Origin: a virus
Taxonomy: Duplodnaviria; Heunggongvirae; Uroviricota; Caudoviricetes
DNA length: 16,956 nucleotides
Virus record (IMG/VR): IMGVR_UViG_2740892218_000013
Span: 1 to 16,956 of that record
Reading direction: 5' to 3' (one strand)
Within the stretch, counting starts at the first letter, position 1. Every line of letters begins with the position of its first letter. A model generated the notes under the pieces. It did no database searches. It was given only the letters and a program-made list of their open reading frames with translations, and was not told where the DNA came from. Positions 1 through 15,626 of this stretch are shown here, in pieces. The position numbers and the translations under genes are program-made.

Positions 1-252
1 TTGTTGGGCTTGTTTAATCCAGTAACTGCGGGGCTTTAAGGCGAGTTTTCTAATCTTAAGTTTATCTTTCTGTTTCTGCTCCTCTCGTCGTCGTTTCTTC
101 TCTGCTGCTTTTTCCGCTTTTTTTCGCTGTTTACTTTGTAGTTCGAGTGCTAACTGAGTTCCGTGTTCCGGGCAGCACCACCACTGATTTGAGAATGCCG
201 GGTGAAACCATTCCTTGCATATTTTGCATTTCCTTCGCGCTGGTTTAGCCAT
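1..252 (-). CDS. ninG: NinG (Rap) recombination protein, N-terminal 84 codons; 3' end lies beyond the window
   Basis: Minus-strand frame from ATG at 250-252 reads [41 protein letters not shown]..., matching the lambda NinG N-terminus as I recall it; open to position 1. Confidence 0.8.
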
Positions 253-316
253 CGTCTTCTTCCTCGTACATTGAGCTATTCGGATCGCTCATCAGTTCTG
301 CGCAGTTATGGTCTGC
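245..316 (-). pseudogene. ninF: ninF 3' fragment (C-terminal ~20 codons), separated from its 5' part by the HNH gene
   Basis: Minus-strand frame ends ...[19 protein letters not shown] then TAA at 245-247, matching the recalled lambda NinF C-terminus. The frame stays open upstream to an ATG at 413-415 (57 codons) but that upstream part has no NinF similarity and overlaps the HNH ORF. Confidence 0.5.
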
Positions 317-812
317 CATGGTTTTCATGAAAACCCAGTTCTTTTTCTGCCCTCTTCCTTTCTGCAATAGCGTCAATGATGCTAGCAAATATTCCAAGAT
401 ATTTGGTGCGCCCATCTACGCATATATTCGCAATCCACTTACATCTCTCTTTATTGAAATATACTCCAGTCACTCCTGACGAATTGGTTATTTTTCTCTT
501 TTGGTTCTGTGCATTCTGTTGGTGTGTAACCAACCGAAGATTAGATAGCCTATTATCTGACCTTACTCCATTTATATGATCAATTTTATACCCTAATGGA
601 ATCTCACCATTATTTATCATCCATATAACGTGGTGAGCATAAGTAATTACACCATCGATAGTTAACATCCTATAACCATCACTCCTAATGTAACCAGCAA
701 CACTGCCAACCTTAACATTATTAGAAGGAGACACTTTCCATCTAAGTACACCTAAAACATCATCATATGATAATTTATTTCTTAATTCGTCTATGTTGCT
801 TATATTTCTCAT
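306..812 (-). CDS. HNH-family homing endonuclease with AP2-like DNA-binding domain (168 aa)
   Basis: ORF track protein contains DHINGVRSDNRLSNLRLVTHQQN (HNH motif) and GVTGVYFNKERCKWIANICVDGRTKYLGIF (AP2-like). The 5' half is markedly AT-rich compared with flanking nin genes. GGTGGAA precedes the ATG. Confidence 0.8.
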   Translation of the reverse strand: MRNISNIDELRNKLSYDDVLGVLRWKVSPSNNVKVGSVAGYIRSDGYRMLTIDGVITYAHHVIWMINNGEIPLGYKIDHINGVRSDNRLSNLRLVTHQQNAQNQKRKITNSSGVTGVYFNKERCKWIANICVDGRTKYLGIFASIIDAIAERKRAEKELGFHENHGRP

Positions 813-834
813 TATGTTCCACCATATTTAAGCA

Positions 835-954
835 TTCATATATACAACGCTCACACACGTGAACTTCCAGCACATGCAGCTTCTGACCGCAGTTAGCGCA
901 CGTTAAAGCTCGCTCGACACTTCCTTGTTCGTAACTTCGATTTTGGTCAATCAC
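835..954 (-). pseudogene. ninF: ninF 5' fragment (N-terminal zinc-finger part), terminated prematurely just before the HNH gene
   Basis: Minus-strand frame from GTG at 952-954 (overlapping the ninE stop) reads ...SYEQGSVERALTCANCGQKLHVLEVHVCERCII then TGA at 835-837, matching the recalled lambda NinF N-terminal half. Confidence 0.5.
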
Positions 955-1133
955 CTTGTTTTCCTCGCACGTTCTCTAAGCCACCGGATATCCCACAGGT
1001 GAGCCGTGTAGTTGAAGGTTTTTACGTCAGATTCTTTTGGGATTGGCTTGCGTTTATTTCTGGAGCGTTTCGTTGGAAGGTATTTGCAGTTTTCGCAGAT
1101 GATGTCGGTGATACTTCGTCGCTGTCGTCTCAT
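951..1133 (-). CDS. ninE: NinE (60 aa)
   Basis: [23 protein letters not shown]... matches lambda NinE as recalled; start overlaps the ninB stop. Confidence 0.8.
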
Positions 1134-1540
1134 TCGTACCTCCTGTCGGTAAATCTGACACCCTGACCAATAGCCCAGGCTGTTGTGTACTCGATCAGAC
1201 TTGCCATACGCTTCACGCTCATCTGCGCGCTGCTTTCGCGAATGTTGACGTATTCGCCTTCAAGGCCGGGCAAAACATCAGCTTCCTGCTTTGTTGCCAC
1301 TGCATGACCGCTGATCAACAAAACCTTCCATTGTTCTGGTTTTAACCATTTATCGCGCCACTGAACTTGCCTAGCGATATCTGCGACCATCGCGTGAAAT
1401 TTTGCGTTCTGGTCAAGGTTGCGCTTGTAGTCAGTAATGCGGATGGTGACTGGCTTGTCTTTATCGAGTGGTGTTGCGAGGATGGCATTTATTGCAGCTT
1501 GCTGTTGTTGCTTAGTTCGGAGGAAGATTGTTTGCTTCAT
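1130..1540 (-). CDS. ninB: NinB recombination protein
   Basis: NinB-like sequence (…[27 protein letters not shown]…). I place the start at ATG 1538-1540 (MKQTIFL, GAGGT 4 nt upstream) rather than the track's TTG at 1558. Confidence 0.8.
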
Positions 1541-1547
1541 TGTCACC

Positions 1548-1754
1548 TCAACTAACAAAACGCCACGCCATTTTTGCTACAGCAACAGGCGCAACACCGA
1601 TAATCACCCACAGGAGAATGCTACCGAAAAGCACACCCACCAGGTCTTTACCTTCGCCTACCAACCGGACAAAACTGCTGGCAACAACAATGAACGTCGC
1701 CACCATCCACATAGCACCGAGAATCCTCAATGCAGAGAAAATTAACTCAGCCAC
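1548..1754 (-). CDS. Small hydrophobic (two-TM) membrane protein, 68 aa, GTG start
   Basis: Strong SD GGGGGAGGG 5-6 nt upstream of GTG; highly hydrophobic translation; sits between a terminator and ninB. Function unknown. Confidence 0.45.
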   Translation of the reverse strand: MAELIFSALRILGAMWMVATFIVVASSFVRLVGEGKDLVGVLFGSILLWVIIGVAPVAVAKMAWRFVS

Positions 1755-1770
1755 GATTCACCCTCCCCCA

Positions 1771-1801
1771 AATAAAAAGGCCTGCGATTACCAGCAGGCC
1801 T
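1771..1801 (-). terminator. Rho-independent terminator (tR2-like) in the nin region
   Basis: Stem AGGCCTGC (1778-1785) / GCAGGCCT (1794-1801) with 8-nt loop; on the minus strand followed by TTTTATTT. Confidence 0.5.
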
Positions 1802-1826
1802 GTTATTAGCTCAGTGATGTAGATGG

Positions 1827-2096
1827 TCATTGCTTCATATCCCCTTCCATTTCATCAATGTCAACGTCATCAGGAAGATGGGAACAATACGCTGCTATAC
1901 CATGATGATTTATCTCATACCCTTTGAACGTTACCATCTGGCGCGTAATCTCAACTTCGTTCAGGAATCCGCCATCGCATAACTGCCTGGCTATTTTCGA
2001 TTTGGTCTGGATTATTGGTAGTGCCTGTTCTTTCAAAGCGTATGATATTTGTGCATCCCATGCCTTTTCGAGAATGGCTAATTGTTTTTTATTCAT
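1827..2096 (-). CDS. Hypothetical protein, 89 aa, translationally coupled to the helicase gene
   Basis: ORF start overlaps the helicase stop by 4 bp; ren/ninA-equivalent position; no motif recognised. Confidence 0.5.
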
Positions 2097-3469
2097 ACGT
2101 CAGCCCCTTGTGCATATCGTCTGCCACGCGCAGCAGGCGCATTTGATGCTGTGCAAATCTGTCTGGCTTCATCCTGGTCACATGCAACAAAGTGTCCGTT
2201 GCAGAACCGCTGGTAAACCGTACCAAGCGAGCCAAAACGGTTTTTCGTCACAATGATTTCAGCAAATGGTGCGGCGCTACTGTTCTCGTCATATACCGCT
2301 TCCCGATAGAGCATGATGATTGAGTCTGCGTCCTGTTCAATGCTTCCTGAATCACGCAAATCTGCGTTTGTCGGGCGTTTGTTTGGTCGCTTCTCAACAT
2401 CGCGCGAAAGCTGACTCAGGGAGATAACCGGTGTTTTCAGGTCTTTCGCCATCGCCTTCAGGCTTCCGGAGATGTGAGCAATTGCGAGGTCGTTGCGGTC
2501 TGCTTTCGGCTTCTCAATCAGGCCAAGATAATCCGCCATGATGAGTGACAGGTTTGGATTTTCCTGTTTGTGTCGTTCTGCGATTGAGCGTATTTCTTCG
2601 ACCGATAACCGCGAGGCATCGACTACCCACACATCCAAATCTGCAAGCTGACTCATGCCGTTAGCAACACGCGCCCAGCCTTCGTCATCCATCGATGCAG
2701 GATTTCGCAGTACGCTAACCGACATCCTCCCGGCGTTGGCAATGCTTCGCTCTGCAATCTGCAATGCGCTCATTTCCATTGAGAAAATCAATACCCCGCG
2801 CCGGACGTCAGAACCAGGAATAACGCGGCTTGCAACGCCTTCGGCAATCTTCAGCGCCAGTTCGGTTTTCCCCATACCAGGACGAGCAGCGATTATCACA
2901 AGGTCTTCTGCGTTCATCCCTCCGGTGATGGCATCAAGTTCTTCGATTCCGGTCTTCAGGGTATCTGACTCTTCTCCGTTCCTCAGACGCCTGTCAAGCG
3001 TGTCAGTGTAGTCAGTGATGATTTCCCCTAACCGTACAGGTTTAACCTCGTCACGGGGCTTTCTGATGGCTGAGAGACGTTTTACAAGTTCATCCATCGC
3101 CTGACTCGATGCGTCGATGGTTCCGCTCTGAATTGGTTCACGCATTTCATCCATGATTTCCAGCACCAGACGGCGGTGATAGTTATCCGCGACCATTCCG
3201 GCATATCCCTTCAGGTTTGCGGCACTCGGGCAGTTTTTGCTGGTCATCAGGATTGACGTGAAATGCTCCTCTCCGCACTCCTCGGCAACCATCAGCGCGT
3301 CGATTAGGTTTCTGTTTCGCGCCTGCTTGCGGATAACCTCGAAGGCCTTCCGGTAGAGCGGAATTGAAAACGCTTCCGGCTCCAGCGTTGCAAGAACGTC
3401 ACTGGCGGTTGGAGTTAATCCACCAATCAGCAGGCCGCCGATAACGCTCGCTTCGATATCCTGTCTCAT
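2093..3469 (-). CDS. Replicative DNA helicase, DnaB family (P22 gene 12 type), 458 aa
   Basis: Walker [13 protein letters not shown] and DnaB-like C-terminal domain; occupies the lambda P position, so replication uses its own helicase rather than a P-type loader. ATGA overlap with the O gene. Confidence 0.9.
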
Positions 3470-4296
3470 GCAATCCCCCTGTCTGCAAACTTCCCTTCCC
3501 GTACTCCCGTTAACGAATCTTCCCTCAGCAGGTAATCAAAATCTGCCGTCCAGCCCGTGTCGTTGTCTCCGAAGTAAAACGGCTTGGCCTGATGCACAAA
3601 CGCCCTGACATACGCTCTGAAACCGTCCACGTTTGGCGTTTTCAATTGCGGAATGATTTTCTTCAGGCGGCGTTTGCGTTTCTCGTTGACCGCAACAGCA
3701 TGTGGAAGTCTGTCACCGACTTCGGTGTTGTAGGCGTTCAGGAAGGATTCGTAGTCGATTCGTTCTGCCTTGCGACGTTCAGGTTTAACCTGCCCATCGC
3801 CGCCCCCATTAGGGGGTAAGGGGGTATTTGTATTTATTGTCTTTTGTATATTGTCTTTTGTGTTTGACTGATTCGGTAAATTGCTTTTTACCGATTTGGT
3901 GAAGGTTTGTTTTACCGAATTGGTAAATGTTTTACCGAATCCGTTAACTTTCGTTTTCCACTCGGAAATGTTTGTATTCATACCAACTTGACGCCCCACC
4001 TGAATGAGAACTCCCATTCTGATAAGCTCGTTTTTGGCGGTAGAGCATTTGGTTGGTGCCATGCCAGTGAGTTCAGCGAACTGTTCGTTTCCGATCCAAT
4101 CTATTTTTTTGTTGTAACCGTATGTCTTGCGCCACACAGCCATAACAATCAGTAACTGATGTAGAGTAAGCCCGGAAAGCATGGCGGCTTCTAACAGTGT
4201 GTTTGCAGTCCGAGTGTAGCCATCTTCGAGTTCTGCCACGCGATGCTCCACGACCTCCAGTTGAGGCCTGTAATCAGCTAACTTAACGACGCCCAT
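3466..4296 (-). CDS. Replication initiator, lambda O-like, 276 aa
   Basis: N-terminal region resembles lambda O (DDGY.R....LLEA...; WRKTYGYNK); the gene contains the ori iteron array. Confidence 0.85.
3830..3950. repeat. Replication origin inside the O gene: about four ~20-bp iterons plus adjacent AT-rich tract
   Basis: Repeats ACCGATTTGGTGAA / ACCGAATTGGTAAA / ACCGAATCCGTTAA plus inverted copy ATTCGGTAAATTG at 3871-3950; ATTGTCTTTTGT occurs twice in the AT-rich tract 3830-3866. Order matches lambda ori relative to O transcription. Confidence 0.6.
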
Positions 4297-4444
4297 GTTT
4301 CACTCCTGCTTTGGCTAGTCTGTAAACACCAACAAGGCGCTCTGCGAACGCCCTGTTATTTGCTGCGGCTACCACTAATCCCTCAGGTGAATCAGGGTGT
4401 CGAATCTCTTCTTTTTCCTGGTATTTCTTACGACGTTTTGTCAT
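4283..4444 (-). CDS. Small basic protein, 53 aa, between cII and O
   Basis: Not in the ORF track (under 60 aa). ATG at 4442-4444 with AGGAG 5 nt upstream; translation [53 protein letters not shown]; 3' end overlaps the O start by 14 bp. Confidence 0.4.
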   Translation of the reverse strand: MTKRRKKYQEKEEIRHPDSPEGLVVAAANNRAFAERLVGVYRLAKAGVKHGRR

Positions 4445-4476
4445 AATTACTCCTGTGGATTGATCCAGTAATTACC

Positions 4477-4773
4477 TCAGAACTCCATCTGGATTTGTTC
4501 AGAACGCTCGGTTGCCGCCGGGCGTTTTTTATTGGTTAGTCCATCAAGCGCATACTTAAAAGCCCTGCTAATCGGACTGATGTCTGATGCCATTCCAAAA
4601 GCACACAGAACCGAAGCAATAAATCTCCAGTCCGTTCTGCTTATCTTCGATTCATGACAGCCAATCATCTTTGCCAGACCGCGCTGGGTAAGCGTTGACA
4701 GATTGATGAGTAAATCTGTTTCTGCGCGATCAACGTCGCGCTGTGATAGTTTGCTGTAACTTGTTTGTTCCAT
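4477..4773 (-). CDS. cII: Transcriptional activator CII
   Basis: C-terminus ...LTNKKRPAATERSEQIQMEF matches lambda CII; position between cro and O. Confidence 0.9.
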   Translation of the reverse strand: MEQTSYSKLSQRDVDRAETDLLINLSTLTQRGLAKMIGCHESKISRTDWRFIASVLCAFGMASDISPISRAFKYALDGLTNKKRPAATERSEQIQMEF

Positions 4774-4838
4774 TTCTTACTATTTCCATAGGTAAATAAT
4801 CACTAATACCCATCTTTCGATGAGTGCTTAATTAGTTA

Positions 4839-4873
4839 CCGCGTTGTCGGCGGTGCAGATTGATAAAGAGCGG
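4839..4873 (-). promoter_or_regulatory. nutR: boxA plus P22-type boxB hairpin
   Basis: Minus strand reads CGCTCTTTAT (boxA) then ACCGCCGACAACGCGGT (5-bp stem, GACAA-type loop), just downstream of cro. Confidence 0.6.
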
Positions 4874-4882
4874 ATCCGCTTA

Positions 4883-5098
4883 TTAAGCGGCTTTGTGTTC
4901 CGGCGGGAACACGTCATCAAGACTGACTTTTGCGCCTAACTTGTTTAGGCACGCAACAAGAGCACGGCATGTTTTAAGGTCTGGGAAGCGACGACCAGAT
5001 TCCCAATGTCCGATAGCTCCCTGTGTGCATCCAACTGCCTTAGCAAGTGTTGTTTGAGAGATATTCAGTGACTCTCGATATTTTCGTAGGTTGCTCAT
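4883..5098 (-). CDS. cro: Cro-type repressor, 71 aa (HTH)
   Basis: HTH ISQTTLAKAVGCTQGAIGHWESG; ATG at 5096-5098 preceded by GGAGGG. The track's TTG at 5125 lies inside the pR -10 hexamer and is rejected. Confidence 0.8.
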   Translation of the reverse strand: MSNLRKYRESLNISQTTLAKAVGCTQGAIGHWESGRRFPDLKTCRALVACLNKLGAKVSLDDVFPPEHKAA

Positions 5099-5208
5099 AT
5101 GCCCTCCATAGTAACCATGAAGCAATAATACGATATGTACTTTTGAAATGCAAATAAAAATACATCTTGTGCATGGATGGTTTTAGTACAGAGCGTAATA
5201 ATAAGGAT
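5099..5208. promoter_or_regulatory. oR region with divergent pR and pRM
   Basis: pR on the minus strand: -35 TTGCAT (5148-5153), 17-bp spacer, -10 TATTAT (5125-5130). Inverted-repeat operator candidates ATGTACTTT / AAAATACAT also occur in the oL region. Confidence 0.7.
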
Positions 5209-5868
5209 ATGAAAATGAAATGGTATGAACTGGCTAGATCCAGAATGAAAGAGCTCGGCATAACTCAAGAGAAGTTAGCTGAAGAGCTTGGTATGACGCA
5301 GGGTGGAATTGGTCACTGGTTGCGCGGATCTCGTCATCCATCTCTTGACGAGATTGGTGTGGTGTTTAAATACCTTGGTATTGATAACGTCTCATTCAAC
5401 CACGACGGTACATTTTCACCTGTTGGCGAATACTCATCTGCCCCCGTTAAAAAACAATATGAGTACCCTGTTTTTTCTCATGTTCAGGCCGGGATGTTCT
5501 CGCCTGAGCTTAGAACCTTTACCAAAGGTGATGCGGAGAGATGGGTAAGCACAACCAAAAAAGCCAGTGATTGTGCATTCTGGCTTGAAGTTGAAGGTAA
5601 TTCCATGACCGCACCAACAGGCTACAAGCCAAGCTTTCCTGACGGGATGTTAATTCTGGTTGACCCTGAGCAGGCTGTCGAGCCAGGTGATTTCTGCATA
5701 GCCAGACTTGGGGGTGATGAGTTTACCTTCAAGAAACTGATCAGGGATAGCGGTCAGGTGTTCCTACAACCACTAAACCCGCAATATCCAATGATCCCAT
5801 GCAATGATAGCTGTTCCGTAGTAGGGAAAGTTATCGCCAGCCAGTGGCCTGAAGAGACATTTAGTTAA
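5209..5868 (+). CDS. cI: CI repressor: heterologous N-terminal HTH domain fused to a lambda-type C-terminal autocleavage domain
   Basis: C-terminal ~130 aa nearly identical to lambda CI as recalled (VQAGMF cleavage site, GNSM serine, FKKL lysine); N-terminal domain differs. Start could be ATG 5209 or 5215 (AAGGA upstream). Confidence 0.9.
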
Positions 5869-5899
5869 CAGCCTCACCACTCTAAAACACACAACAATA

Positions 5900-5929
5900 A
5901 CCCGACCTTAGCGTCGGGTTTTCTTTTTC
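5900..5929 (+). terminator. Rho-independent terminator downstream of cI
   Basis: Stem CCCGAC (5901-5906) / GTCGGG (5913-5918) followed by TTTTCTTTTT. Confidence 0.6.
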
Positions 5930-5993
5930 CAAAATATAAATCAATAAAATACAAAGTGTTATAAAAAACTAACCGCATTTAGAACATTTTGTA

Positions 5994-6022
5994 TTGACTC
6001 AATAAAGTACACATCGTACTAT
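5994..6022 (+). promoter_or_regulatory. pL promoter with overlapping oL operators
   Basis: -35 TTGACT (5994-5999), exact 17-bp spacer, -10 TACTAT (6017-6022); flanked by TACAAAGTGTT / AACATTTTGTA inverted repeats. Confidence 0.65.
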
Positions 6023-6067
6023 TTAGCCATCAGCAGGAAGCTGGAAGCCAAACGGAACAGATTGGCA

Positions 6068-6102
6068 GGCTCTTTAACTTCGATGGGGCGCTGACAAAGC
6101 GC
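6068..6102 (+). promoter_or_regulatory. nutL: boxA-like plus P22-type boxB hairpin
   Basis: GGCTCTTTAA (6068-6077) then GCGCTGACAAAGCGC (6088-6102), the P22 boxB-left sequence as I recall it, upstream of N. Confidence 0.7.
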
Positions 6103-6221
6103 AAATAGATACCAAACGAGATGGGTTTGGCGGTGATGTGAATTGCAGCTGCAACGACAGCAACCAGAAGATCAGCACCTGGCGCATCACCACCAAAGCC
6201 ATTTCACATGAGGAAAACATC

Positions 6222-6530
6222 ATGACGGTAATCGTGTACGGAAAATCAACATTTGCAGGAAATGCCAAAACTCGCCGTCATGAGCGGCGCAGAAAGCTGG
6301 CTATCGAGCGTGATTCCATCTGCAACATCATCGATTCGATCTTCGGCATAGACAGTGAGGAAGCTGTTCAGGAAGAACCGAGAAAGCGTTTAAGTCTTTC
6401 TGAAAAAGCAGCATCACTCGGCAATATTCGTAACCAAAATACCGACGAATGCAGTGGAAGTATTTGCCTGCCAAACGTAGCCATTTACGCGGCAGGCTAC
6501 CGGAAATCAAAACAACTGACAGCGAGGTAA
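6222..6530 (+). CDS. N: Antitermination protein N, P22 gene 24 type, ~102 aa
   Basis: Arginine-rich motif GNAKTRRHERRRKLAIERD near the N-terminus (the P22 N boxB-binding peptide as recalled). ATG at 6222 with GAGGA upstream, chosen over the track's start at 6138. Confidence 0.85.
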   Translation: MTVIVYGKSTFAGNAKTRRHERRRKLAIERDSICNIIDSIFGIDSEEAVQEEPRKRLSLSEKAASLGNIRNQNTDECSGSICLPNVAIYAAGYRKSKQLTAR

Positions 6531-6532
6531 TT

Positions 6533-6985
6533 ATGGATTTAAGTAAATTAGAAAGCTCTTTAGAAGCATCAGTAAAAAATTTTATATCAGTAATTGATGA
6601 AAAAACTGAAGATATTAAGAAAGCAAATATTGTCGAACTTGTAAAAACAAGAGCCAGTACATTTGATCATCTTCCTGATGATGTCCGGTCAGCGGCAATT
6701 CACGTATATGTAACGGCACTAAGCAATATTGAACCCCCAATTGATGAAGAATCAAGAGATATTCAGAAAAAACGGTTCGAGATGTTAGCCAGCAACATTA
6801 TCGCTGGTTTCACACGGCTCTTAACAAAAAAGCCTGCCAGTGAGGCTGTTCGCCAGCAGGCTCAGGTAATGATTAATCAGGCAGAAACTATTTCACGTGA
6901 GCGAAAAGCATTTGATAAATCGGTTTCTGAACTTCCAACACCTCAACCGCAGCCGCTGAACCTTCCTTCTCAACAAACTGAATAA
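6533..6985 (+). CDS. Hypothetical protein, 150 aa, AT-rich, translationally coupled to N
   Basis: ATG at 6533 three nt after the N stop, with GAGGT SD; first ~200 bp strongly AT-rich; no motif recognised; 3' end overlaps a convergent ORF. Confidence 0.5.
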   Translation: MDLSKLESSLEASVKNFISVIDEKTEDIKKANIVELVKTRASTFDHLPDDVRSAAIHVYVTALSNIEPPIDEESRDIQKKRFEMLASNIIAGFTRLLTKKPASEAVRQQAQVMINQAETISRERKAFDKSVSELPTPQPQPLNLPSQQTE

Positions 6986-7142
6986 CTTCATCAAGATTCT
7001 TTTTTGCATGTGATGATTGCTCAGGTGGCATAGCAGAAACAATCGAAATGATTGCTTGCTGGAGCGCGAGGTTTTCAGTGCTCAGTTTTGAAACTCTGTT
7101 GTTTAAATCCTCAATGATTTTAACAAGAGATACATCTGACAT
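6888..7142 (-). CDS. Hypothetical protein, 84 aa, antisense to the pL operon
   Basis: ATG at 7140-7142 with AAGGAG 5 nt upstream; predicted helical (LNNRVSKLSTENLALQQAI); overlaps the 3' end of the 6533-6985 ORF by 98 bp. Confidence 0.4.
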   Translation of the reverse strand: MSDVSLVKIIEDLNNRVSKLSTENLALQQAIISIVSAMPPEQSSHAKKNLDEVIQFVEKEGSAAAVEVLEVQKPIYQMLFAHVK

Positions 7143-7153
7143 GTGAACTCCTT

Positions 7154-7203
7154 CTTTTGACTGTGGAAACAACAGTCTACCCATTTCCTTTGACTGTGGA
7201 AAG
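7154..7203. repeat. Two direct copies of a 16-bp motif, 34 bp apart, in the intergenic region
   Basis: CTTTTGACTGTGGAAA at 7154-7169 and CCTTTGACTGTGGAAA at 7188-7203 (15 of 16 identical), between the minus-strand ORF start and the 7282 gene. Confidence 0.6.
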
Positions 7204-7281
7204 TGAAGGAACCACCGAGCCTGATGTGGTTAAAAGACAGGCACAATCTTTACAGCCGCAATCCACTATTTAAGGTGATAT

Positions 7282-7731
7282 ATGGAAGAACAAGCAAACA
7301 AGATTCTCGTAGAACTACTGCAAAAAGCCAGTAATGGAATAGACGCGGCTGTTTCATTTAGCCAGGCACAGATTCCTGATGTTGTTCATCAGTTGCTGCT
7401 ATGGAATATGGTTGACAGTCTGATTAAAACATTAATAGCCATTCTAACAATCCCACTGGTTTTCTGGTTTATGAAGAAGCAGTGCCAAAGAGTTGAGATA
7501 GGTAAAATCGGTAATGAAGGATATTCATGGGAGAAGGGAAATCCCAAATACAGGCCGACAATGGTTTGGGATAGCAAAGGTGATATTAATCTTCTTATCA
7601 TGCCATTGGTTGGAGTTTTGACTCTGTGGGGGATTTTTATTATTGGTGCAGTAACCAATATGACTTGGTTAAAAATTTGGCTGGCTCCAAAGCTTTACCT
7701 TATCGAATATGCAGCATCATTGGTTAAGTAA
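7282..7731 (+). CDS. Multi-pass inner-membrane protein, 149 aa; candidate superinfection-exclusion protein
   Basis: AAGGTGA SD; two or three hydrophobic helices; followed by a terminator; lies where lambda has sieB. No sequence identity recognised. Confidence 0.55.
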   Translation: MEEQANKILVELLQKASNGIDAAVSFSQAQIPDVVHQLLLWNMVDSLIKTLIAILTIPLVFWFMKKQCQRVEIGKIGNEGYSWEKGNPKYRPTMVWDSKGDINLLIMPLVGVLTLWGIFIIGAVTNMTWLKIWLAPKLYLIEYAASLVK

Positions 7732-7736
7732 TTTCA

Positions 7737-7764
7737 GGCCGCATAGTCGGCCTTTATTTTTGGC
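7737..7764 (+). terminator. Rho-independent terminator
   Basis: Stem AGGCCG (7737-7742) / CGGCCT (7749-7754), loop CATAGT, then TTATTTTTGG. Confidence 0.55.
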
Positions 7765-7880
7765 ATAAACAACAGAATAAATACTGCACTGTGTATTCAT
7801 TCCGACGAGTGAATACACGGAGCAATGTCGCTCGTAACTAAACAGGAGCCGACTTGTTCTGATTATTGGAAATCTTCTTT

Positions 7881-7907
7881 GCCCTCCAGTGTGAGGGCGA
7901 TTTTTTT
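7881..7907 (+). terminator. Rho-independent terminator immediately upstream of the 7920 gene's SD
   Basis: Stem GCCCTC (7881-7886) / GAGGGC (7893-7898), loop CAGTGT, then GATTTTTTT; GGAGGA SD follows directly. Confidence 0.55.
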
Positions 7908-7919
7908 GATGGAGGATAT

Positions 7920-8888
7920 ATGAGTGAAGTAACAGACTTAGTTGTTATTGAAAAAGCAAATGCAATGACTGTATTTCAGTCTGCAGACCAGATTGAAGAA
8001 ATCCTTCAAAAGGTTGAACGTGAAGTTATGTCCTTTGTGCCTGATATCACAACGGCAAAGGGCAGAAAGGAGATCGCTTCTCTGGCGTATAAAGTTGCGC
8101 AGACGAAAACATATCTCGATGGTCTTGGCAAAGACCTTGTTGCTGAACTGAAGGAAATTCCAAAGCTAATTGATGCCAACCGCAAGACAGTGCGCGATCG
8201 CCTTGATGAACTGAAAGCCAAGGCGCGCCAGCCTCTTACTGATTATGAGGAAGAACAGGCGCGGATTAAAGCCGAAGAAGAAGCTAAGGCAGCAGCTGAA
8301 GCTCTCGCAAAGCAAATTGAGTCTGACCATGAAATAGCTATTTTGATGGATCGCGAATTTGACCGCCAAAGAGAAGAGGCAAGACTCAAAGCGGAGCAGG
8401 AAAAGCGAGAGCATGAAGAACGATTAAAAAGAGAAGCTGAAGAGAAAGCCAGAGCAGAAGCCGAAGCAAAGGCAAAAGCCGAAATTGAAGCAGCAGCAAG
8501 GCGAGAAGCAGAAGCTAAGGCCGCAGCGGAACGTGCAGAGCGTGAACGCATTGAAGCCGAGCAACGAGCACAGCGCGAAGCAAAAGAGGCAGCAGAACGA
8601 GCTGAAAGAGAAAAGCAGGCAGCAATTGAAGCAGAACGCAGAAAAGCACAGGAGGAGGCTGAACGAATCCGTCGCGAGGCTGAAGCAAAAGAGCAAGCCA
8701 GAATAGCAGAAGAAAAAAGAATCAAGGACGAAGAAGATCGTAGAGCAAAGGATAAAGCTCACCGGAAAGAAGTAAATAACAAAATACTTGCTGACCTTAT
8801 CAAGGTTGGCGCATCAGAAGATGTTGCTAAAAATATCATAACAGCCATCGTAAAAGGCGAAGTATTCGCAACAAAAATAACCTACTAA
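7920..8888 (+). CDS. Coiled-coil protein, 322 aa, with long E/A/K/R-rich central repeat region
   Basis: ATG at 7920 after GGAGGA. Globular N-terminal ~110 aa, ~170 aa of EAKA/REAE-type repeats, short conserved C-terminal tail. Function unknown; sits just upstream of cIII. Confidence 0.65.
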   Translation: MSEVTDLVVIEKANAMTVFQSADQIEEILQKVEREVMSFVPDITTAKGRKEIASLAYKVAQTKTYLDGLGKDLVAELKEIPKLIDANRKTVRDRLDELKAKARQPLTDYEEEQARIKAEEEAKAAAEALAKQIESDHEIAILMDREFDRQREEARLKAEQEKREHEERLKREAEEKARAEAEAKAKAEIEAAARREAEAKAAAERAERERIEAEQRAQREAKEAAERAEREKQAAIEAERRKAQEEAERIRREAEAKEQARIAEEKRIKDEEDRRAKDKAHRKEVNNKILADLIKVGASEDVAKNIITAIVKGEVFATKITY

Positions 8889-8912
8889 TAAAACCAACAT
8901 AAGGAACCACCC

Positions 8913-9059
8913 ATGATTTACGCAATCGCGGGAGGCGCTCGCATGGGTGCCTTCCAATTAAATGAATCTTTACTTGAACGAATCACCCGTAAATTACGTG
9001 ACGGATGGAAACGACTCATCGACGTACTTAATCAGCCAGGATTTCCAAAAAATGGATAA
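8913..9059 (+). CDS. cIII: CIII (protects CII from FtsH), 48 aa
   Basis: Not in the ORF track. AAGGAA SD 6 nt upstream; translation MIYAIAGGARMGAFQLNESLLERITRKLRDGWKRLIDVLNQPGFPKNG matches the lambda CIII core (ESLLERITRKLRDGWKRLIDILNQPG) as recalled. Confidence 0.85.
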   Translation: MIYAIAGGARMGAFQLNESLLERITRKLRDGWKRLIDVLNQPGFPKNG

Positions 9060-9165
9060 AACACTTATGGCTATCCAGACTAAATTCACTATCGCCACTT
9101 TTATTGGCGATGAAAAGATGTTTCGTGAGGCCGTCGAGGCCTACAGGAAATGGAGGTCAAAATGA
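9052..9165 (+). CDS. kil: Kil-like host-killing protein, 37 aa
   Basis: Internal Met of the track ORF 8962-9165; MDKTLMAIQTKFTIATFIGDEKMFREAVEAYRKWRSK resembles the lambda Kil N-terminus as recalled; start overlaps the cIII stop. Confidence 0.6.
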   Translation: MDKTLMAIQTKFTIATFIGDEKMFREAVEAYRKWRSK

Positions 9166-9350
9166 TTCCGGTAGAACTGGCGAAAACTCCAGAGTTAAGT
9201 CGATTAAAAAGAGAATATCACATTGCTGAGGCTCGTTACTGGCGTAAAGCGGGAGATAAATCAAAGAAACAACTTTGTTTATGGCAGGCACAAAGAGAGC
9301 GCATGAATGAGCGAGAGTTTCTTTCCTCCCCATCCGAATTACCATTCTGA
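9162..9350 (+). CDS. Hypothetical protein, 62 aa
   Basis: ATG at 9162 with GGAGG 5 nt upstream; start overlaps the kil stop; in the lambda gam position but not Gam-like. Confidence 0.45.
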   Translation: MIPVELAKTPELSRLKREYHIAEARYWRKAGDKSKKQLCLWQAQRERMNEREFLSSPSELPF

Positions 9351-9358
9351 GGCAAATT

Positions 9359-10039
9359 ATGGGAACTGCAACATTAATACTCGGTGAGTCTGGCACCGGA
9401 AAATCAACCAGCATGAGAAATATCAATCCAGAGGAAGCAATACTTATAAAACCAATAGGCAAGCCGCTACCATTTAAATCAAAAGACTGGCTGGCATGGG
9501 ATGCCAGAGCAAAAAAAGGAACCGTAGTTACCACTGACAAATGGGATGTAATAGTTGCCGTAATTAAGCGTGCTCACGAATACGGGAAAAGAATCGTTAT
9601 TGTTGATGACTTCCAGTATGTGATGAGCAATGAGTTTATGCGCCGCTCAGAAGAAAAATCGTTTGATAAATTCACTGAGATAGGCCGTCACGCATGGGAG
9701 GTCATTAAGGCTGCACAAGATGCACCTGATGACCTGAGAGTCTATTTTCTTGCGCACACCGAAGAAACCCCTATGGGGCGCGTGAAAATGAAAACTATCG
9801 GCAAAATGCTGGACGAGAAGATCACTGTTGAAGGCATGTTTACTATAGTTCTTCGCACCCTTACCCGTGATGACCAGTTCTTTTTCACCACGAAAAACAA
9901 CGGTGCAGACACTGTTAAATCCCCAATGGGAATGTTTGATTCCAATGAGATTGATAACGATCTCTCTTTCGTCGATGCCACTGTTTGTGATTACTACGGC
10001 ATCAATAATGTTCATCAAATTAAGGAAAACGCCGCATGA
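9359..10039 (+). CDS. Sak4-type RecA-like ATPase (phage single-strand annealing recombinase family), 226 aa
   Basis: Walker A GESGTGKST near the N-terminus, Walker B IVIVDD, ~225 aa core-only size; lies where lambda has bet/exo. Confidence 0.7.
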   Translation: MGTATLILGESGTGKSTSMRNINPEEAILIKPIGKPLPFKSKDWLAWDARAKKGTVVTTDKWDVIVAVIKRAHEYGKRIVIVDDFQYVMSNEFMRRSEEKSFDKFTEIGRHAWEVIKAAQDAPDDLRVYFLAHTEETPMGRVKMKTIGKMLDEKITVEGMFTIVLRTLTRDDQFFFTTKNNGADTVKSPMGMFDSNEIDNDLSFVDATVCDYYGINNVHQIKENAA

Positions 10040-10623
10040 GCAACGTAATTTTTACTTATAACGAAGAAGCAGCACTGACCGCAGGGCAAGGTGGTTTTAT
10101 TAACGAAACTGGCGCTCATATCATTACCATTACTGAAGCAGAACTAAAGCAATCAGAAAAAGGCGCAAAATTTATTGAGTTTTCTGGCGAATCCGACGAC
10201 GGACGTAAAATACAATATCTTAGCGTTTGTGTTCAGAAAAATGACGGAACGGAAAACAAATTTGGCGCAAATGTCGTTCACGCCATGATGGGGTGTGCCG
10301 GTATTGGACAATTAACGCAACATATGGTTTCCGCCAGTAAATTTGTTGCACCTGAATTTCATGGAAAGAAAATCGGGTTAGTGCTCCAGAAAGTATTAAC
10401 CACAAACAAAAAGACTGGCGCAGACAGCTACCAGATGGAAATACGCATCCCGTTTATTGCACAAACAGGTCAAACCCTTAAAGAAAAGGCGGAAGGCAAG
10501 CAACCAGAAACTATCGCCAACATGGTTGCCAGCCTCAAAGATAAAGACAATCGCTCTAAAAACGTAAGCCAGAATCATGCAGATGATTATGGTTACAGCC
10601 AGAACGATTACCCTCCTTTCTGA
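10036..10623 (+). CDS. Putative ssDNA-binding protein partner of Sak4, 195 aa, with SSB-like acidic tail ending in Phe
   Basis: Translationally coupled to the Sak4-like gene (ATGA overlap). C-terminus ...HADDYGYSQNDYPPF resembles the SSB and T7 gp2.5 acidic tail with terminal aromatic residue. OB fold not verifiable by eye. Confidence 0.4.
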   Translation: MSNVIFTYNEEAALTAGQGGFINETGAHIITITEAELKQSEKGAKFIEFSGESDDGRKIQYLSVCVQKNDGTENKFGANVVHAMMGCAGIGQLTQHMVSASKFVAPEFHGKKIGLVLQKVLTTNKKTGADSYQMEIRIPFIAQTGQTLKEKAEGKQPETIANMVASLKDKDNRSKNVSQNHADDYGYSQNDYPPF

Positions 10624-10646
10624 TTACTGAAAATAAGGCTCCCATT

Positions 10647-10943
10647 ATGCCAGCGCCTCTGTATGGTGCGGATGACCCGCGCAACTGCTCCGGTAGCTCC
10701 AAGGCGGAGGTGCTGGAAAATATCAAAAACAATTTCGACGCGTTTCTTGCTCTGACGCCAGAAACAAAAGCAGAACGGATGTACCGACGCGATATACAAC
10801 TCGCGCTAAAACAGGAGAAGGACCGAACAAACGAAACAGCAATGAGACCGTTGCGAAAAGCGACAATAGACAAATTCCCTGAATATATCGACCCGCGCCT
10901 GCGTAATTACCGCTCACGCTATGGCGCTATCAGTAATGACTGA
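10647..10943 (+). CDS. Hypothetical protein, 98 aa
   Basis: ORF in operon orientation with an upstream purine-rich tract; no motif recognised. Confidence 0.45.
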
Positions 10944-10953
10944 GGAATTTACC

Positions 10954-11118
10954 ATGAGAGGACTTGCATACAATCCCGGCATTCTTCCGGCAGAAATGAT
11001 TATTCGCCAACGCGTAAAGCCAATGCCATCGAGAGAGGAATTGCTTAAGAGAAATTCTTTTCCATCAGTGAATCAAAACAAATATCTGAATGCGATGTGG
11101 CGGAGTGGGAAGAAATGA
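10954..11118 (+). CDS. Hypothetical small protein, 54 aa
   Basis: Internal ATG of track ORF 10921-11118, preceded by GAGGAA at 6-nt spacing. Confidence 0.3.
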
Positions 11119-11786
11119 AACAAATGTCACTAATTGAGATGGATGGTTTTCTGAAAGGTAAATGCATCCCAAGTGATTTAAAGGTTAACGAAACAAACGC
11201 TGAATATCTTGTCCGTAAGTTCGGTGAACTTGAATCAAAACTAGAAACGGCGTTGCGGGAGTGTCGTTCTGCTGGAATCACGATTGATAACCTTGAGGCC
11301 AAGTGCGCGGCGCTGGCAGCGGAGAATGCAAGACTGAAGGCCGGGGCTATGTATTTCTCATATGGCTCTGAATTTAGTTTCGAGTGTCACAAAACTGCTG
11401 AGGAGGCTATCGCTGCTGCTGAGGCTGCAATTGACGACTATAGAGGCGATGCTTGCGATGGATGGAGCGAAGAGGTCGAAAGCATTTGCTGGGGGGTAAT
11501 TATTCAGCAGGCAACCAAGGTCGGTGAACGCAAGAAGAGGAAATGCGACAGAGTATCACCATGGATTGAAAGAGTTTGTGATTATGAGCTTCGACCTAAT
11601 GTCGAAACCCCAGCCACCGATGCTTTCCTGGCTGAAGTACGAGCGCAGGGCGTGGAGATGTTTGCACAGAAATGTAACTCAAAATCCGAACAGTCATTTG
11701 CATCTGATATACGCGATAACTGGAAACTACTCGGTGAACATGCCACTGACTTTGCCGCAGAGCTTCGCAAAGGAGGCAACCAGTGA
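11097..11786 (+). CDS. Coiled-coil protein, possibly Ead/Ea22-like; start uncertain (11097 or 11115)
   Basis: Central coiled-coil ([39 protein letters not shown]); position between the recombination module and xis. Confidence 0.5.
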
Positions 11787-12052
11787 GTGAGTCAAAATGC
11801 CAAATTAATGGCAACAAGATAGAACCGTGCGCGGCTTTGGCAAAATCTCTCGAATATGGAAATCCAACATTCAAGAGTAAAGGCATATTTATCCCGGAAC
11901 GTGTGAACATAAACACCGGCGAGTCAGGCATAGATATTGCTCAAATTCACTCTGGGCAATATATCGGTCGTGGTGTTGCAATGTGTTTTTGCCCGTTCTG
12001 TGGTGAAAGTCTGAAAACGTGGGAAGCGGAGGCAACCAGTGAGCGAGATTGA
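11783..12052 (+). CDS. Hypothetical protein, 89 aa, GTG start
   Basis: Starts with GGAGGCAACCA-GTG-AGT-GAG overlapping the upstream stop; contains a CxxC pair (CPFCGE). Confidence 0.45.
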   Translation: MSESKCQINGNKIEPCAALAKSLEYGNPTFKSKGIFIPERVNINTGESGIDIAQIHSGQYIGRGVAMCFCPFCGESLKTWEAEATSERD

Positions 12053-12620
12053 CTATCAGGCACTGCGTGCTAAGGCAGAAAAAGCAACGTGTGGTGTGTG
12101 GTCGCTCGAATATGGAGAGGAGAGATTTGATGCTGGTGATGCGCTAATTCATCGTGAAGTTGTTGGATATCTTCCCATTTGCAGAATTGAAGGAGCGCAT
12201 CCTGAAAGCGGTTTCGATGAAGATTTCCAAATGGAACAGCAGGCCAATGCTGAATTCATCGCCGCAGCCAATCCCGCTACCGTCTTGGCGCTGCTGGATG
12301 AACGGGAAAGAAACCAGCAATACATAAAACGCCGTGACCAGGAGAACGAGGATATTGCGCTAACGGTAGGGAAGCTGCGCGTTGAGCTTGAAGCAGCAAA
12401 ATCAAAACTCAACGAGCAGCGTGAATATTACGAGGGAGTAATCGCGGATGGAAGTAAGCGCATAGCAGAACTGGAGGAGCGGGAAATACTGCTCCCGGAA
12501 CGTAGCAGTATGCTTCATCGAACAGATTTTCACGAGGATTACCAAACGGTAATGGCATACAAAGTTTCTGAGGTCATCGCTGCAATCCGCGCCGCTGGCA
12601 TTCGCATCAAAGGAGAGTGA
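12039..12620 (+). CDS. Ead/Ea22-like family protein, 193 aa, GTG start
   Basis: Motif EFIAAANPATVLALLDE followed by coiled-coil, typical of Ea22-like prophage proteins as recalled; same SD-GTG-MSE start cassette as the previous gene. Confidence 0.55.
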   Translation: MSEIDYQALRAKAEKATCGVWSLEYGEERFDAGDALIHREVVGYLPICRIEGAHPESGFDEDFQMEQQANAEFIAAANPATVLALLDERERNQQYIKRRDQENEDIALTVGKLRVELEAAKSKLNEQREYYEGVIADGSKRIAELEEREILLPERSSMLHRTDFHEDYQTVMAYKVSEVIAAIRAAGIRIKGE

Positions 12621-12621
12621 G

Positions 12622-12819
12622 ATGGACAAAAACACACCTGCTTACTGGAGTCTGTCACTTGATACCGAATGTCCAAAATGTGGTCACAATTTCGATCTGC
12701 TTTGTGATCCAGATTTCTGGGAGTTTTCTGGAGCTAAACAGGCATGTGAAGAAATAAAAGGTTACGAAACATGCTGTCCAGAATGTAACCATGAATTTAA
12801 AACAGATTTCGTGTATTGA
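12622..12819 (+). CDS. Small zinc-ribbon protein, 65 aa
   Basis: Two Cys pairs (CPKCGH ... CCPECNH); tightly packed after the upstream gene. Confidence 0.5.
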   Translation: MDKNTPAYWSLSLDTECPKCGHNFDLLCDPDFWEFSGAKQACEEIKGYETCCPECNHEFKTDFVY

Positions 12820-12829
12820 GGCATAACAA

Positions 12830-13282
12830 ATGACCACTATTACCAGAGAACAAGCTCTGAAAATTATTGAGGCAGCCGATGAGGTTATTAGTGCGCTGGC
12901 CGGAACTAATGAGGATGTTCACCCTGGTAGCGATAACATGCTACGCCTGTGGGATGACCTGAATGACCGTTACGCGCCGCCGGAAGTTGTGCGTGAGCTG
13001 GCACGGATTGCACTGGCATCACTGGAAGCAAAACCAATAGGTGCTTTCCACATTGCAGAACAGCAGGTCGATGGCACAAGTGACTACATCAAGGATGGGG
13101 AGTGGCCTATTGATAATGGGACAATTGAAGTATACGCCGCCCCTCCAGCGCCAGTAGTACCGGAAGAAAAACCAATGCCTAACCCTCTTAGCATGTACAC
13201 AGTTGATGCTGTTGCAGCTATTGCAGAGGTGAGAGGCTGGAACGCCTGCCGTGCAGCCATGCTTAAGGGAGATAAATCATGA
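12830..13282 (+). CDS. Hypothetical protein, 150 aa
   Basis: ORF in operon orientation; stop overlaps the next start (ATGA). Confidence 0.5.
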   Translation: MTTITREQALKIIEAADEVISALAGTNEDVHPGSDNMLRLWDDLNDRYAPPEVVRELARIALASLEAKPIGAFHIAEQQVDGTSDYIKDGEWPIDNGTIEVYAAPPAPVVPEEKPMPNPLSMYTVDAVAAIAEVRGWNACRAAMLKGDKS

Positions 13283-13629
13283 TTAATCGAACCAAACTGG
13301 AGCACATCCTCGAGTATGCCAGGCAGCAGAGGCGCTTTGGCCAGCTTTGTAAAATTCTGCCAGGAGATATGGTTGAAATCGTGGAGATTGCCATGCGTAA
13401 GACTGGCAACTCTCCGGTAAGTCCGGGTGGTTGGATAAGCTGTAGTGAGCGAATGCCCGCTCAAGATGATTGGATTTTAATTTATTCAAAGCACGGTGAG
13501 TATATGGCAGGACAGGTACAAGAGGAATACGTGGAGTTGAGCGACGGCACTTTATCGTGGTTAGGGAACGCCTTGTACTGGATGCTGCTACCAGAACCGC
13601 CGCAGGGAGTGAATGATGAATTGGCCTGA
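13279..13629 (+). CDS. DUF551-like prophage protein, 116 aa
   Basis: Motif WISCSERMP...DDWILIY resembles the DUF551 signature (W.S..ERLP) as recalled. Confidence 0.5.
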   Translation: MINRTKLEHILEYARQQRRFGQLCKILPGDMVEIVEIAMRKTGNSPVSPGGWISCSERMPAQDDWILIYSKHGEYMAGQVQEEYVELSDGTLSWLGNALYWMLLPEPPQGVNDELA

Positions 13630-13699
13630 AGCATTCACCGCTGTAGGAGTTGCAATCGCGGTGGCATTTATTCTGTATTCGCTTTTCCGCTGGGGATAA
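13616..13699 (+). CDS. Possible small single-TM peptide, 27 aa
   Basis: Not in the ORF track. ATG 13616 (alternative 13613) after GGGAG; translation MNWPEAFTAVGVAIAVAFILYSLFRWG; overlaps the upstream gene's end and stops 4 nt before the next start. Confidence 0.3.
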   Translation: MNWPEAFTAVGVAIAVAFILYSLFRWG

Positions 13700-13703
13700 A
13701 GGA

Positions 13704-13946
13704 ATGTTCGCTCTGATTCAACGTGGTCAGATATACACCGATAGCGCCGGCTACCCGATAAAAATTCTTCGCTGCATAAACAACACTGTGTTGTACAGAA
13801 GAATGGATGGGCGAACACAGTCGGTAAAAATAAACGATTTTAATGAACTGTTTGAACGGATCGATCACCAGGAATACCGACAAATTCTGGCTGAAACAGA
13901 GCAGGAGAACCATCTGAAAAAATTACGCGCCATGCAAAGGAGATAA
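13704..13946 (+). CDS. Hypothetical protein, 80 aa
   Basis: Internal ATG of track ORF 13650-13946 (MFALIQRGQIY...), placed directly after the small peptide stop. Confidence 0.45.
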   Translation: MFALIQRGQIYTDSAGYPIKILRCINNTVLYRRMDGRTQSVKINDFNELFERIDHQEYRQILAETEQENHLKKLRAMQRR

Positions 13947-14007
13947 ACCGGTAAAGGTGTTCGCGATAAAGGTGAATATCGGCAATGAATAACAATCCTC
14001 GCACTCG

Positions 14008-14032
14008 CGGGGATTTATTTTATCTGAACTCG
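14008..14032 (+). terminator. Possible Rho-independent terminator
   Basis: Stem ACTCGC (14008-14013) / GCGAGT (14018-14023), loop TACG, then TTTGTTTTAT. Confidence 0.4.
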
Positions 14033-14064
14033 CTACGGCGAGTTTTGTTTTATGGAGATGATAA

Positions 14065-14232
14065 ATGCACTTCCGAGTCACAGGTGAATGGAATGGAGAA
14101 CCATTCAACAGAGTTATCGAAGCGGAGAACATCAACGACTGCTACGACCACTGGATGATATGGGCACAGATAGCACATGCAGACGTAACCAATATTCGAA
14201 TTGAAGAACTGAAAGAACACCAAGCCGCCTGA
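14065..14232 (+). CDS. Hypothetical small protein, 55 aa
   Basis: Not in the ORF track. ATG at 14065 with GGAGATGA upstream; translation MHFRVTGEWNGEPFNRVIEAENINDCYDHWMIWAQIAHADVTNIRIEELKEHQAA; stop lies in the loop of a terminator hairpin. Confidence 0.45.
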   Translation: MHFRVTGEWNGEPFNRVIEAENINDCYDHWMIWAQIAHADVTNIRIEELKEHQAA

Positions 14233-14247
14233 TGGCGGTTTTTTCTT
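14223..14247 (+). terminator. Rho-independent terminator upstream of xis
   Basis: Stem CCGCC (14225-14229) / GGCGG (14234-14238), loop TGAT, then TTTTTTCTT. Confidence 0.55.
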
Positions 14248-14271
14248 GCGTGTAATTGCGGAGACTTTGCG

Positions 14272-14490
14272 ATGTACTTGACACTTCAGGAGTGGAACGC
14301 ACGCCAGCGACGCCCAAGAAGCCTTGAAACAGTTCGTCGATGGGTTCGCGAATGCAGGATATTCCCACCTCCGGTTAAGGATGGAAGAGAGTATCTGTTC
14401 CACGAATCAGCGGTAAAGGTTGACTTAAATCGACCAGTAACAGGTAGCCTTTTGAAGAGGATCAGAAATGGGAAGAAGGCGAAGTCATGA
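14272..14490 (+). CDS. xis: Excisionase Xis, lambda type, 72 aa
   Basis: MYLTLQEWNARQRRPRSLETVRRWVRECRIFPPPVKDGREYLFHESAVKVDLNRPVTG.LLKRIRNGKKAKS is essentially lambda Xis as recalled; overlaps the int start by 23 bp as in lambda. Confidence 0.9.
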   Translation: MYLTLQEWNARQRRPRSLETVRRWVRECRIFPPPVKDGREYLFHESAVKVDLNRPVTGSLLKRIRNGKKAKS

Positions 14491-15538: not shown

Positions 15539-15626
15539 TGATTTTATTTTGACTGATAGTGACCTGTTCGTTGCAACAAATTGATAAGTAATGCTTTTTT
15601 ATAAGGCCAACTTAGTATAAAAAAGC
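15539..15626. other. attL junction: P' arm with arm-type Int sites plus 15-bp core
   Basis: Core TTAGTATAAAAAAGC at 15612-15626 is the reverse complement of the lambda core GCTTTTTTATACTAA; arm-type site ATAGTGACCT at 15556-15565; flanking GCAGGCTTCA matches the bacterial attB arm. Confidence 0.85.

Follow-up and report, generated by a model that had tools for sequence, protein, structure and literature searches.

What is the role of two near-identical copies of a short sequence in the intergenic region of a prophage, immediately in front of a small gene that is read against the surrounding operon? The window analyzed here (16,956 nucleotides, positions 1 to 16,956 of IMG/VR record IMGVR_UViG_2740892218_000013) is a lambdoid prophage, and its + strand corresponds to the leftward (pL) operon. 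Along this strand the order is cI, pL, boxB, N, an ORF of 150 aa, the intergenic region with the repeats and a membrane protein gene. The features that define this setting, together with the small antisense gene (referred to here as the cargo gene), are as follows.

5167-5868: cI, CI-type repressor gene
5994-6022, + strand: pL, a strong promoter (TTGACT-17-TACTAT), overlapped by the palindromic operator AGTACACATCGTACT
6006-6020: CI operator AGTACACATCGTACT
6088-6102: nutL boxB, GCGCTGACAAAGCGC, identical to the P22-type boxB
6222-6530, + strand: N peptide gene (PF25694)
6533-6985, + strand: ORF of 150 aa, function not assigned, annotated in strain 09-00049
6821-6847, minus strand: terminator-like hairpin with T-run, downstream of the cargo gene
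6888-7142, minus strand: cargo gene of 84 aa, with a Shine-Dalgarno (SD) sequence GGAG at 7151-7148
7282-7731, + strand: widespread membrane protein gene (phrog_3054)

Because the boxB is identical to that of the P22 type, the N protein probably shares the specificity of P22 gene 24. The position of the repeats, after N and before the ral-type block and antisense to pL, is that of sieB in P22 and lambda. Furthermore, window positions 7209-7285 are 97% identical to lambda 34354-34430, a segment just upstream of the pL-opposed sieB gene, so the antisense ORF occupies the sieB position. It overlaps the 150-aa ORF by 98 nt (6888-6985), and the minus-strand terminator-like hairpin (6847-6831) falls within that ORF; the RefSeq annotation of both genes differs from strain to strain.

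The cargo gene is annotated by RefSeq as WP_096952992.1 (strain PEC41). Its homologues form 13 clusters, all of 84 aa, with 70-100% identity and conservative substitutions, and on these comparative grounds it is a real, conserved gene. Searches of Pfam, PHROGs, NCBIfam, PADLOC, PDB sequences and phage tblastn gave no match to its product. SieB/Esc exclusion was considered as its function and rejected, as the product is 84 aa in length, matches no family and is not a SieB membrane protein. Given a cargo other than SieB, in which no Esc-like internal start was identified, the translational-switch logic of P22 is not simply transferable to the window.

The repeats consist of an exact 14-mer, TTTGACTGTGGAAA, found on the + strand at 7156-7169 and again at 7189-7202, with a gap of 19 bp. 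Ungapped similarity extends to 18 nt, with 17 of the 18 positions identical (7152-7169 against 7185-7202). An earlier sequence-only reading had described paired 16-mers with 15 of 16 matches, which we confirm (7154-7169 against 7187-7202); the start-to-start distance, given there as 34 bp, is 33 bp. As that reading also stated, the repeats are directly upstream of the SD of the antisense ORF (GGAG at 7151-7148 and ATG at 7142-7140, minus strand), and the membrane protein gene starts 80 bp downstream of them, at 7282. The pair is far beyond chance: a 14-nt exact direct repeat within 14-60 bp exceeded the best repeat in 30 of 30 mononucleotide shuffles (shuffle maximum 8-12 nt). No third copy was found in a motif search of the whole window allowing up to 2 mismatches. 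The possibility raised earlier that the repeats are a duplicated coding remnant does not appear to hold, given that they lie upstream of the conserved 84-aa frame and that the same module precedes different cargo genes. Judged by its conservation, the pair is real and functional in its context, and the region from 7140 to 7245 (~105 bp) is probably a compact two-way control module of the sieB kind.

The arrangement of the repeats with respect to a predicted promoter for the cargo gene is as follows.

7197-7202, minus strand: -35-like hexamer TTTCCA (over 33 modules, T in 33, W, Y, C in 33, C in 33, M)
7185-7202, + strand: distal copy, TTCCTTTGACTGTGGAAA, exact core 7189-7202
7174-7179, minus strand: -10 hexamer TAGACT, 17 nt downstream of the -35
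7152-7169, + strand: proximal copy, TTCTTTTGACTGTGGAAA, exact core 7156-7169

Thus the minus strand reads TTTCCA (7202-7197), a 17-nt spacer, TAGACT (7179-7174), the proximal copy, the SD and the ATG. On this strand the -35 hexamer and the adjoining 8 nt of the spacer fall within the distal copy, and the proximal copy extends over the predicted transcription start and ~10-14 nt at the 5' end of the cargo mRNA. The start is predicted, by analogy with P22 alone, at approximately 7164-7168 on the minus strand. In 33 diverse aligned modules, T at -12 and A at -11 are present in 33 of 33 and T at -7 in 32 of 33, and the -10 hexamers include TATAAT, GATAAT, GTTAAT, TAAAAT, GATAAA and TATATT as well as TAGACT. 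It is mainly because of this conserved TAnnnT pattern that the promoter is assigned to the minus strand. A consensus promoter scan of 6800-7500 at a threshold of 9/12 returned no site on either strand; TTTCCA-17-TAGACT was missed because only 8 of 12 consensus positions match, and the promoter is recognized by homology and conservation only. By homology, we infer that TTTCCA-17-TAGACT is the sigma-70 promoter of the cargo gene. The earlier expectation of a regulatory element for the antisense ORF is borne out, but the strand and mechanism suggested with it are not supported; the conserved -10 of this predicted promoter lies between the two copies.

The promoter elements might instead lie on the other strand. 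Each copy contains TTGACT, which matches TTGACA at five of six positions and had been put forward as a possible -35 element, in which case each copy would serve as a + strand -35 for the membrane protein gene or for an antisense RNA promoter. This is highly improbable. The segments located 16-18 bp downstream of the two copies are CCCATT and CACCGA, neither of which is an acceptable -10; the scan of 6800-7500 found no + strand promoter; TTGAC is missing from the same positions in types A, C, D and E of the repeat types described below; and the conserved TAnnnT pattern reads on the opposite, minus strand.

To place the module in a wider context, 129 loci were gathered from IMG/VR and annotated records, anchored on the conserved block that follows the repeats. 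Approximately 40 distinct modules contain a direct repeat with a period of 32-35 bp, mostly 33-34 bp, at a fixed distance from the block and with the -10 in a constant place, so that the spacing is conserved across these modules. Their cores fall into at least five types, three main and two rarer.

Type A: CTGTAGGGGT (lambda, P22)
Type B: TTGACTGTGGAA (window)
Type C: GTTGTTGGGGA
Type D: GCATTGGGG
Type E: TTGTGGGGG

The copies were compared by their longest exact shared word, since in types A and C the register is shifted by one base. This word averages 8.4-12.9 nt for the two copies of a module, as opposed to ~5 nt for orthologous copies of different types. The two copies therefore evolve in concert across repeat types. 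The types must have arisen after the duplication, since the intervening sequence is homologous across them; as the paralogous copies are nevertheless still alike, their identity must have been maintained. There are exceptions, however, and one module is an E/A hybrid. In one E. albertii locus (L368, 1440-1500) the cores have diverged (TTTCCACGGTTAAA against CCTCCACAGTCAAC, 9 of 14 identical), while TAGACT and the cargo gene are intact; either this is a decaying prophage or the identity of the copies is dispensable.

The 12-nt type B core occurs in both copies in 25 species of ~16 Enterobacterales genera, including Proteus, Providencia, Yersinia, Photorhabdus, Xenorhabdus, Serratia, Pantoea, Erwinia, Rahnella, Klebsiella and Enterobacter; because the search demanded exact cores, this survey shows breadth and not degree of conservation. 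In the same exact-core search, both cores are kept across distant genera while flanks and spacer diverge. The type B module is rare in E. coli (12 of 5,426 complete genomes) and is found in 1 of 50,697 phage records. The conserved block downstream of the repeats was found in at least 1,011 of the 5,426 E. coli genomes. A separate class of loci (58 of the 126 classified, for example L012, L020 and L054) has a single copy and no direct repeat. In this class, a hairpin next to the conserved block pairs the SD of the cargo gene with an upstream anti-SD (for example, ATCCTTAAAA...TTTTAAGGAT), and the loop of this hairpin is sometimes type B-like (ACTGTGGTGA). The single-copy class could be either the ancestral state or a deletion derivative.

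While the module recurs, the genes behind it differ. From position 7150 rightwards, the window sequence is nearly identical in other E. coli prophages, where it precedes minus-strand genes of 54 aa and 60 aa; the identical module thus precedes three different cargo genes, beside different neighbours. Across repeat types, the cargos comprise P22-type and lambda-type SieB, coiled-coil proteins of 136-200 aa and small proteins of 52-97 aa. Because the same module stands before unrelated cargos, it can be regarded as an exchangeable expression platform. Among the anchored loci, SieB-type cargos are found only with type A modules. The cargos of the sieB slot include three families of SieB-like membrane proteins and several coiled-coil proteins. 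At three loci with diverged copies of the 84-aa gene (L366-L368, 523-1358), the far-side neighbour in the pL operon is an Nmad5-domain protein (PF18757) that replaces the membrane protein.

The closest known relatives of the module are those of P22 and lambda, which carry a repeat of their own, ACCCCTACAG when read in the direction of sieB; its two copies are spaced 34 bp apart on the stretch from the conserved block to the sieB start codon. The P22 annotation (NC_002371) places the sieB promoter at 29690-29720 and the start of the sieB RNA at 29727. In position, the -35-like hexamer of the window matches the 5' end of this annotated promoter. The P22 distal copy overlaps the -35 of this promoter (TGTACC|CCTACAG, where TGTACC is our own reading of the annotated promoter), the -10 is GATAAA, and the proximal copy starts exactly at the annotated +1. 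Reportedly, the P22 (and lambda) sieB promoter with its sas antisense RNA was described by Ranade and Poteete in 1993. The window shares with the P22 and lambda sieB module its map position, a repeat pair spaced 33-34 bp apart, an aligned -10 and the 3' block; over 7206-7250 it is identical to P22 and lambda at ~43 of 45 positions, whereas the 5' half is alike in layout only. The modules differ in the repeat core (TTGACTGTGGAA in the window, CTGTAGGGGT in P22 and lambda) and in the cargo, which is an unrelated 84-aa soluble protein in the window and the SieB membrane protein in P22 and lambda. The sas antisense RNA of P22 is 127 nt in length and of pL sense, as defined by RNA-seq in a 2026 study (PMC13397905, Table 2). 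From the complement of the sieB AUG it runs through both copies, present as CUGUAGGGGU, to an end within the conserved block (PMC13397905). By position, and by sequence over its 3' ~45 nt, sas (105-127 nt) has its counterpart in the window as follows.

7140-7245, + strand: sas-homologous region

The mRNA start (from the annotation) and the discrete antisense RNA (from RNA-seq) are those of P22; by comparison with it, the window's promoter is predicted to be active and its antisense RNA to be made. A sieB-type promoter with a sas-type antisense RNA is already known, and what is new here is the repeat sequence type and the cargo of the window. On comparative evidence the control region is ordinary in kind, with a predicted promoter on one strand and a putative folded antisense RNA on the other.

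The predicted structure of the pL-sense RNA of this region has two parts, a hairpin (HP2) and an H-type pseudoknot.

7185-7211, + strand: HP2 hairpin, UUCCUUU.G.ACU [GUGGAA] AGU GAAGGAA, -8.2 kcal/mol
7210-7242, + strand: H-type pseudoknot, in the block conserved in lambda, P22 and the window
7210-7215/7226-7231, + strand: pseudoknot stem S1
7216-7218, + strand: pseudoknot loop L1
7219-7223/7238-7242, + strand: pseudoknot stem S2
7224-7225, + strand: pseudoknot loop L2
7232-7237, + strand: pseudoknot loop L3, A-rich

The 5' arm and loop of HP2 come from the distal copy, read on the + strand. The stem changes in a compensatory manner between types (apical pairs UGUA/UACA in A, ACU/AGU in B and GUUGUU/AAUAAC in C) and closes a loop of GGGG or GUGGAA. 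Over 33 aligned sequences taken regardless of kinship, 90% of cells are paired at HP2, compared with 70% in shuffles and 35-47% when the arms are slid; five of the eight pairs vary on both sides, and there are 37 G.U against 11 A.C combinations (again counted regardless of kinship). Because of this excess of G.U over A.C, HP2 is assigned to the + strand RNA. Single-sequence fold z-scores are modest (-1.7).

In the pseudoknot, S2 is replaced in other genera from GCCTG/CAGGC to GCTGGG/CCCAGC, GCCGGG/CCCGGC or GCCTT/AAGGC, with 92.6% of cells paired compared with 22-45% when slid, and four of six pairs vary on both sides (regardless of kinship). At least six compensatory variants of the S1 stem AACCAC/GTGGTT were found: CCATGC/GCATGG, AACCTCA/TGAGGTT, CGGGA/TCCCG, CGCGC/GCGCG, ACCCGC/GCGGGT and TCACG/CGTGA. 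The loops range from 0 to 3 nt, from 0 to 2 nt and, for the A-rich third loop, from 6 to 11 nt, a geometry that is standard for the H type. As modelled, the block probably folds as an H-type pseudoknot, two mutually exclusive hairpins being the alternative. Rfam searches of 5800-8200 gave matches at chance level only (E-value of 1.7 or above, all below gathering scores). A further hairpin can form around the proximal copy in the window subtype (GACTGT/ACAGTC, 7161-7176, + strand, z of approximately -3.6), and its 3' arm overlaps the complement of the -10 (AGTCTA). It was considered as a conserved element and set aside, being found in the window subtype and not kept across types.

Based on these features, the following mechanism can be proposed. 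In the lysogen, where pL is repressed, the minus-strand promoter would express the cargo gene against the direction of pL. When pL becomes active, upon induction or in a superinfecting relative, N-antiterminated read-through would be antisense to the cargo 5' UTR and start codon. By analogy with P22 sas, read-through may leave a stable fragment of ~105-127 nt, consisting of a 5' seed (the anti-SD and the proximal copy), HP2 and the 3' pseudoknot, the last of which is a plausible protective 3' end. The fragment would pair with the cargo 5' UTR and start codon, and translation would be blocked. Processing of the antisense RNA from the pL transcript is suggested because no + strand promoter was found; moreover, an antisense promoter of its own is not expected because the variable upstream cargo sequence could not carry a conserved one.

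The match between the two copies calls for a further explanation. One possible reason, which we offer tentatively and by analogy, is that the distal core displayed by HP2 acts as a fast-pairing toehold for the 5' end of the cargo mRNA. In the distal copy, the part that matches the proximal copy is the one found in the apical half of HP2. With a predicted start inside the sequence complementary to the proximal copy, the cargo mRNA would have a free 5' end that is complementary to the loop and upper stem of HP2 as well. A comparable arrangement is found in IS10, where the loop of RNA-OUT pairs with the 5' end of the RNA-IN mRNA and the promoter regions of opposite strands overlap. In both cases, an antisense RNA has a stem-loop whose loop and 5' side are complementary to an mRNA 5' end. 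The differences are that the IS10 loop lies directly opposite the mRNA 5' end, whereas the copy displayed by the loop in the window is a second, upstream duplicate, and that RNA-OUT has its own promoter, whereas the antisense RNA of the window apparently arises from operon read-through. The comparison is therefore an analogy of mechanism and does not imply homology. Two points weigh against a toehold: the proximal copy, encoded in cis, already pairs perfectly with the mRNA, and the E. albertii relative tolerates cores that are only 9/14 identical.

The alternatives to an RNA-based role place the function of the copies in the DNA or deny them one. As originally proposed, the repeats would be a pair of operators for a dimeric or tetrameric regulator, bound on one face of the helix approximately three turns apart and covering the -35 and +1, by which the antisense promoter would be repressed or activated. 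Several observations are in keeping with this: the 33-34 bp spacing is conserved and in phase, the copies lie over the -35 and +1 as is typical of repressor sites, they change in concert between types, and in ~16 genera both copies retain the exact 12-nt core although the spacer has drifted. A regulator that co-varies with the repeat type might then be expected nearby, but no protein cluster within 7 kb on either side co-varies with type B (the best is present at 6 of 15 loci), and an analysis of protein association with repeat type at 126 loci, 7 kb on each side, detected linkage effects with type A only. In addition, the same module precedes different cargos and is flanked by different neighbours on both sides, the window contains no other occurrence of the motif, and the partner arm of HP2 covaries with the distal copy, which is not predicted for a DNA site. 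We therefore disfavour a role in regulator binding and regard an operator pair as rather unlikely. Binding by known regulators was also considered. CI and Cro were rejected because AGTACACATCGTACT is unrelated to the repeats and no segment of the oL and oR regions comes closer to the repeat than 4-5 mismatches. A LexA box was rejected as well; the candidate at 7161-7176, CTGT-N7-ACAG, has a spacer one base shorter than that of CTGT-N8-ACAG and is lacking in relatives. The reverse complements of the copies, GTTTCCACA and CTTTCCACA, each match the DnaA box TTWTNCACA by inspection at eight of nine positions, but the equivalent copies in lambda, P22 and types C-E (ACCCCTACAG, TCCCCAACAAC) occupy the same positions and are not box-like, so that host DnaA boxes are barely credible. 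The 'boundary sequence' bsq4 of Sf6 was excluded because it lies downstream of the membrane protein gene and not at the repeats.

It is also conceivable that the pair has no function and is the relic of an old event in which the 5' UTR and start region of the cargo gene were duplicated in tandem, creating the promoter. Consistent with such an origin, the similarity between the copies runs into an SD-like segment and ATG (in the window, TTTCCACAGTCAAA plus GGAAATGG against the same plus AGAAGGAG), the -10 region of P22 (GAGAAATCGGATAAAC) resembles its start region (GAGAATCGCCGATGAAC), and there is a single-copy class in which one hairpin sequesters the SD. Against this, the duplication predates the repeat types, yet paralogous copies are far more alike than orthologous ones, and both cores are exactly conserved in distant genera in which the flanks have diverged. 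A functionless relic is thus improbable, and we favour, weakly, a role of the matching copies in the antisense RNA with the distal core as a candidate toehold.

The unit resembles prophage morons in that it has its own promoter, a small gene and a terminator-like hairpin and is oriented against the surrounding operon. Unlike morons, its platform is conserved and exchangeable, contains a putative built-in antisense RNA and is reused for many unrelated cargos. An anonymous intergenic repeat thereby becomes the landmark of a prophage-expressed gene slot, the sieB position, which is equipped with a predicted promoter and a putative antisense off-switch and which serves as a reusable platform for many unrelated cargos across the Enterobacterales. 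The cargos found there are good candidates for genes of exclusion or defence. P22 sas seems to be one member of an RNA family whose common structure, a hairpin and an H-type pseudoknot, has no Rfam match; these two structures, together with the core types that evolve in concert and the exchangeable cargo, may be of more interest than the repeat itself. A more speculative idea, which we consider unlikely but worth stating, is that the cores determine the specificity of structured antisense RNAs (seed, hairpin and 3' pseudoknot) that form a widespread family within an exchangeable promoter module. If this were true, types A-E would act like incompatibility groups in an RNA-based, type-specific form of anti-exclusion, and an induced or superinfecting phage would silence the exclusion or moron gene of a resident prophage only if both carried the same core type.
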